From Escherichia phage LF82-9: a stretch of DNA of 64,000 nt. The position numbers and the translations under genes are program-made. The stretch lies in the sequence record PV660452, one strand, 5' to 3'. The notes under the pieces were generated by a model. It was not told the DNA's origin, did not search any database, and saw nothing but the letters and a program-made list of their open reading frames with translations. Shown here one piece after another: positions 53,150 to 53,605 of the stretch (the stretch's first letter is position 1; every line of letters begins with the position of its first letter).

Positions 53150-53605
53150 TTATTTTAGATCTTCGGCCCAATCTAGTTTTAAGGGTTCTTTGTATTCACG
53201 GTCGAGAATAACCGGAATAGCTACATCACCACTGAATGATAGTTGGCCAACGTTATATGATAACGTTATATGTGGAGTGTAGTCGTCGAAGTCATGAGTA
53301 GCACCTAAAGCCCGTGCATACTGATGACGACATCTAAGATATTCGGAATCAAGAACTAAAACCAGTACAGCGCCGTCGTCAGTTTTCCATACCTCAAAGT
53401 GTCCTGATTCGGCAATAGAATAACTACCACTAGATGTAGTATATGGTATGTTTACACGTGAATAGCAAATTGTCGAATGAAGCTTTTCACGTGGTACTGG
53501 ATTAGGAATTCTTAATTTACGCTGGAGATCTTCCAGCGCATCAAGTGTTAATTCTGAAAACTTAGCTGCGACGTAGAGGCCTTGTGAAAAGTCCTCAAAT
53601 TTCAT
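53150..53605 (-). CDS. 57B: gp57B, 2H-phosphoesterase family (T4 57B is the anti-CBASS nuclease Acb1)
   Basis: Two H-x-T motifs (LHSTI, PHITL) typical of 2H phosphoesterases; synteny 57B-57A-1. Confidence 0.8.

Follow-up and report, generated by a model that had tools for sequence, protein, structure and literature searches.

The window (the whole 64,000-nt stretch of Escherichia phage LF82-9, record PV660452) belongs to a Tequatrovirus: a 24.5-kb piece of it is 96–98% identical to Shigella phage Shf125875 and to the Escherichia LF82 phage series. The gene considered here, acb1 (gene 57B), is a 151-amino-acid minus-strand ORF that starts with ATG and ends in TAA, and its limits coincide exactly with the interval that a first-pass annotation, giving no strand, had singled out as a likely counter-defense gene. 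Three plus-strand ORFs of 30–43 amino acids lying across it were treated as chance. It is found between the genes for gp57A and IPI, with those for gp1 and gp3 upstream, in the order of the T4 record (Table 1); the conserved 57B position claimed for it is therefore real. The full order 3, 1, 57A, 57B, ipI, tRNA-region ORFs, tRNA cluster is that of T4, and the order 3, 1, 57A, 57B recurs in six other Straboviridae lineages (phiR1-RT, Acj9, SSG23, 50AhydR13PP, phi-ST2, and KP27). The 2-kb neighborhood of acb1 has matches in 701 phage records.

Table 1. Features of the acb1 region, in order along the minus strand, with the evidence for each.
Feature	Position	Strand	Evidence or remarks
gp3	54628-55218	-	PF06841
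dNMP kinase gp1	53840-54574	-	PF21448, 323 bits
Candidate late promoter TATAAATA	54190-54197	-	T4 late-promoter consensus octamer inside gene 1, upstream of 57A-acb1
Gene 57A (tail-fiber chaperone)	53605-53835	-	PF17594 GP57, 85.3 bits
acb1 (gene 57B) CDS, 151 aa + stop	53150-53605	-	ORF, Pfam PF23474, PDB 7T26, T4 gp57B identity, dN/dS
First catalytic motif H43-S-T45	53471-53479	-	In KLHSTICY; T4 H44/T46
Second catalytic motif H112-I-T114	53264-53272	-	In TPHITLSY; T4 H113/T115
C-terminal lid, residues 144-151	53153-53176	-	LDWAEDLK, including stacking W146 (T4 W147)
12-bp hairpin	53101-53127	-	Predicted fold; starts 23 nt past acb1 stop
IPI (ipI)	52785-53072	-	PF11634, 172.9 bits
trna.4 counterpart	52523-52708	-	T4 order and size only; no Pfam match
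trna.3 counterpart	52112-52522	-	T4 order and size only; no Pfam match
trna.2 counterpart	51816-52109	-	T4 order and size only; no Pfam match
tRNA cluster	50270-51217	-	ARAGORN

The tRNA cluster at the far end of this region has ten genes by ARAGORN (Arg, Asn, Tyr, Met-CAT, Thr, Ser, Pro, Gly, Leu, and Gln). The Rfam gathering-threshold list has nine, tRNA-Tyr at 50552-50638 being the one missing, and the same scan of the whole window returned nothing besides tRNAs. T4 has eight annotated tRNAs, with the homing endonuclease gene segB between tRNA-Arg and the rest; at the corresponding position the window has a gap of only ~125 nt, so segB is absent. Between the cluster and the trna.2 homolog is a 171-aa minus-strand ORF (51304-51819) with no Pfam match and no counterpart at that place in T4; in phage Mizar it is a hypothetical protein.

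The two H-x-T motifs of 2H phosphoesterases reported for the acb1 product are present, and a regular-expression scan of the 151-aa translation for H-x-[ST] finds exactly these two. The protein has 5 His and 8 Thr among its 151 amino acids, from which simple arithmetic gives a chance expectation of ~0.26 H-x-T and a probability of ~0.03 for two or more. Taken alone, then, the pair would be weak, suggestive evidence, and it is the full-length protein matches that make the case. In a Pfam search, residues 8-149 match the entire PF23474 “Anti-CBASS protein Acb1” profile (positions 1-144 of 144) at 196.8 bits (E 1.8e-58), against a cut-off of 27. The comparison with T4 gp57B/Acb1 (NP_049750.1) gives 85% identity and 92% similarity over 151 of 151 residues with no gaps (E 2e-102), in agreement with the proposed status as a T4 57B homolog of the Acb1 family. 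Among all PDB sequences the best match is the Acb1 of phage FBB1 (7T26/7T27; E 7.9e-59), which aligns from residue 9 to residue 148 with residues 2-142 of the 144-residue chain and pairs the two motifs as HxTIxYSR and PHITLSYN. It is followed by weak matches (E 0.008) to 9Q2G/9Q2Y, entries that carry the name Acb1 and represent a divergent 2H phosphodiesterase.

By its homology to 7T26 (64% identity), the protein is predicted to have the compact 2H phosphoesterase fold. An AlphaFold2 single-sequence model was too poor for use (mean pLDDT 38.6, pTM 0.29), so the fold assignment comes from the crystal-structure homology.

The first-pass annotation also stated that T4 57B is Acb1, an enzyme cleaving cyclic oligonucleotide immune signals. 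This was shown by Hobbs et al. (2022, PMC9117128), who identified T4 57B by activity-guided fractionation for cGAMP degradation. The T4 enzyme cleaves 3'3'-cGAMP and cAAA 3' of adenosine, independently of metal, as do all nine of the further Acb1 homologs tested in that study. Its catalytic tetrad is H44/T46/H113/T115; Y12, W74, F107, and W147 stack on the bases, E141 contacts adenine N6, and residues 145-152 form a lid that closes over the ligand. H44A inactivates the enzyme, and the H44A/H113A double mutant is catalytically dead. In infected cells activity is seen ~15 min into T4 infection; deletion of acb1 abolishes cGAMP cleavage in lysates and lowers plating on CBASS hosts more than 300-fold, while growth in the absence of CBASS is normal (PMC9117128). 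A 2025 preprint describes the C-terminal lid as required for activity and reports that the 2H PDE core sets substrate preference (bioRxiv 10.1101/2025.08.21.671373).

All nine of these functionally mapped T4 residues have identical counterparts in the window protein, each numbered one lower than in T4. The alignment proposed in the first-pass annotation as a check on the catalytic histidines thus finds both of them in place, along with both threonines, completing the HxT/HxT tetrad (H43, T45, H112, and T114). The stacking aromatics (Y11, W73, F106, and W146) and the adenine-N6-contact E140 are identical to those of T4, and the lid differs by one conservative change, D149E (LDWAEDLK for T4 LDWADDLK). 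A wider comparison was made with ten sequences, those of the window protein, T4, FBB1, Yersinia phiR1-RT, Acinetobacter Acj9, Shigella SSG23, Aeromonas 50AhydR13PP, Vibrio phi-ST2, Klebsiella KP27, and Vibrio phiKT1024, which span seven Straboviridae genera or groups plus an unclassified Vibrio phage. H43, T45, H112, T114, Y11, and E140 are invariant in all ten, at identities to the window protein down to 28%.

In public records the gene is mostly annotated as “RNA ligase” or “hypothetical protein.” The former term is used in RefSeq records for T4 and related genes, and also in the description of the PHROGs family to which the acb1 product is assigned (phrog_755). Taken literally, it would make the product a LigT-like 2'-5' RNA ligase or RNA 2',3'-cyclic phosphodiesterase acting on the ends of RNA, with tRNA repair as one possible role. 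The closeness of acb1 to the tRNA cluster could be read in this way, as could the sole other Pfam match, to PF13563 2_5_RNA_ligase2 (E 0.012). That match covers only residues 69-131, however, and its 16.1 bits are below the cut-off of 27 and far below the score of the dedicated Acb1 model; an identity as LigT or RNA ligase was rejected on this Pfam score. Against it also are the discovery of the T4 orthologue through its cGAMP-degrading activity, the loss of that activity from lysates upon deletion, and the origin of the label itself, which derives from the shared 2H superfamily fold with no assay behind it. Action on RNA ends is accordingly considered very improbable. “RNA ligase” is a superfamily-derived misnomer, and the proper name is Acb1, a cyclic-oligonucleotide phosphodiesterase. 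One relative is already labeled in this sense: the counterpart in phage Mizar, whose 2-kb neighborhood is 95.4% identical to that of the window, is annotated as “anti-CBASS Acb1-like protein.”

At the nucleotide level, acb1 is 75% identical to T4 57B. A codon-by-codon Nei-Gojobori comparison gives pS 0.69 and pN 0.12, with dN/dS 0.07: synonymous sites are near saturation, and acb1 is under strong purifying selection. These figures bear on whether the gene could be an inactive or decaying remnant, retained only through its overlap or co-transcription with 57A. Such a gene might be imagined, since the normal growth of T4 delta-acb1 on hosts without CBASS shows it to be dispensable in the laboratory. 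The ORF is nonetheless intact and full length with every catalytic and binding residue kept, the low dN/dS is seen despite near-saturated synonymous change, and a tblastn search finds an acb1 homolog in 1469 phage records. The strong purifying selection in effect rules out decay, and a remnant is exceedingly improbable.

The tblastn identities are bimodal, with 152 phage records at 95% or above, 568 at 80–90% (the range in which T4 falls, at 85%), and one between; the window acb1 therefore belongs to a distinct, minority allele class. Its product is 100% identical to those of ORFs in Shigella phage SSE1 (MK639187.1) and Escherichia phage ECO26.1 3-1. The divergence extends beyond acb1. The block of genes 1, 57A, and 57B (53150-54574) is far more diverged from T4 than is the neighboring ipI, as seen in the 75% nucleotide identity of acb1 versus the 90% protein identity of IPI, and the phage records matched by a 2-kb query form one group at 90% or above and another at 60–80%. 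Genes 1-57A-57B are a mosaic allele block.

The 23 amino acid substitutions relative to T4 Acb1 reach into the core of the protein (e.g., L71F, S67E, and M96Q). Together with the distinct allele class and the nucleotide divergence, they might point to a member of the Acb1 family with a substrate range different from that of the T4 enzyme, for example through loss of activity on 2'3'-c-di-AMP (thereby avoiding Panoptes) or gain of activity on other signals. T4 Acb1 reportedly degrades 2'3'-c-di-AMP and, when overexpressed, can trigger Panoptes, and substrate preference in 2H PDEs reportedly depends on the core (bioRxiv 10.1101/2025.08.21.671373). Among the rival readings this is the only one with some life, but it is unlikely: all known ligand-contacting residues are unchanged, far more distant homologs have kept activity on cGAMP and cAAA, and the sequence indicates no specific change. 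A particular form of it, in which the core substitutions retune substrate preference so that, for example, 2'3'-c-di-AMP is spared and CBASS is evaded without tripping the Panoptes decoy-nucleotide system, is conceivable though quite unlikely.

The reading favored here is that the window ORF encodes a functional orthologue of T4 Acb1 (gp57B), with a probability that we put at about 0.93; the activity of this allele is inferred. Family membership, the kept mapped residues, purifying selection, and synteny were computed directly, while the chemistry, substrates, and phenotype attributed to the protein are those published for its T4 and FBB1 counterparts. By homology, the window Acb1 would be a small metal-independent 2H phosphoesterase with a U-shaped pocket for adenosine-containing 3'-5' cyclic di- and trinucleotides, over which the C-terminal lid would shut. 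Strain on the bound adenosine would lead its 2'-OH to attack the neighboring 3'-5' phosphodiester, with H43/T45/H112/T114 presumably serving as the acid-base tetrad. This should yield an inactive linear product, GpAp, by way of a 2',3'-cyclic phosphate; the effector of CBASS, the bacterial immune system that uses these cyclic nucleotides as alarm signals, would then never be switched on, and the phage would escape abortive infection.

Several features suggest how acb1 may be expressed. The TAA stop of 57A and the ATG of acb1 share one base (TAATG), where T4 has an analogous ATGA-type overlap of 57A and 57B. This one-base overlap suggests translational coupling, and acb1 is probably coupled to 57A in this way. 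A terminator scan found no terminator-like site between the two genes, and acb1 is probably expressed together with genes 1 and 57A. The octamer TATAAATA inside gene 1 is a candidate late promoter upstream of 57A and acb1. Across the window it is not enriched (8 found vs. 8.0 expected), so its candidacy comes from positional conservation, T4 gene 1 having the same octamer at the corresponding site. A late promoter here would fit the timing of Acb1 activity in T4 infection. A scan of 52400-55400 for sigma-70 promoters returned 10 sites, with 10.9 expected, and so offers no support for a promoter of acb1's own.

The hairpin downstream of acb1 has a predicted folding energy of -15.4 kcal/mol (z -3.56), and none of 200 shuffled sequences was equally stable. 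It is overlapped by an early-promoter-like site, TTTACA-17-TACTAT with TG (53135-53107, minus strand). This arrangement probably marks where the acb1 transcript ends and the ipI unit begins.

These two elements are part of a larger arrangement around ipI, the gene directly downstream of acb1, whose product is 90% identical to T4 IPI, an anti-GmrSD internal protein. On either side of the gene lies a copy of a 65-nt direct repeat (53093-53157 and 52723-52787), the two being 74% identical. Each is a cassette made up of an early-promoter-like site and a stable hairpin, the acb1-side copy including the hairpin described above. Relatives such as Mizar and LF82-1 have a third copy of the cassette and an extra gene of ~310 nt that begins with the same 30 nt as ipI. 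The pattern suggests that internal-protein genes are shuffled by way of the cassette.

Elsewhere in the window, at 37901-38182 on the minus strand, is a homolog of the cyclic-nucleotide sponge Acb2/Vs.4 (PF24729 Acb2_Tad1_hairpin, 63.9 bits; PDB 7UQ2 “Vs.4,” E 9.8e-31). The ORF as listed (37901-38335) starts at an upstream TTG; the likely start is an ATG at 38182 or 38167. Like T4, the window thus has two anti-CBASS proteins, a nuclease and a sponge; their genes here are ~15 kb apart. Adjoining the Acb2 homolog is a 120-aa minus-strand ORF (38381-38743) whose C terminus matches the glycine-radical domain PF01228 (67.3 bits); it may resemble the small autonomous glycyl-radical cofactor protein of T4 (Y06I) and E. 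coli (YfiD/GrcA).

The window acb1 is an ordinary intact copy of a known gene, rightly marked as counter-defense in the first-pass annotation, and there is nothing new in it as such. The main use of the finding is in correcting the “RNA ligase” and “hypothetical” labels. With acb1, ipI (anti-GmrSD), and the Acb2/Vs.4 sponge, the phage carries the standard T4 anti-immunity kit.

Of known systems, T4 Acb1 is the closest. The two proteins are of near-equal length (151 amino acids in the window, 152 in T4) and align without gaps; the HxT/HxT tetrad, stacking aromatics, adenine-specific Glu, and lid are common to both, and the two genes occupy the same genomic position and overlap 57A. The differences are the 23 substitutions, one N-terminal Met fewer in the window protein, and the divergence at the nucleotide level. 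The Acb1 of Erwinia phage FBB1 (7T26, apo; 7T27, with a 3'3'-cGAMP analog) is next, its 64% identity extending across the whole crystallized construct; the residue corresponding to W73, which the window protein shares with T4, is F in FBB1, and the host genus differs.

The 2H PDE-9 protein (9Q2G/9Q2Y), deposited as “Anti-CBASS protein Acb1,” has a 2H fold with aligned HxT motifs and degrades 3'3'-cGAMP, but the match to it is marginal, its lid lies at the N terminus instead of the C terminus, and it leaves 2'3'-c-di-AMP intact (bioRxiv 10.1101/2025.08.21.671373). LigT and the 2'-5' RNA ligases of PF13563 share with the window protein membership in the 2H superfamily and two H-x-T/S motifs; they differ from it in substrate, and their profile scores it below threshold.
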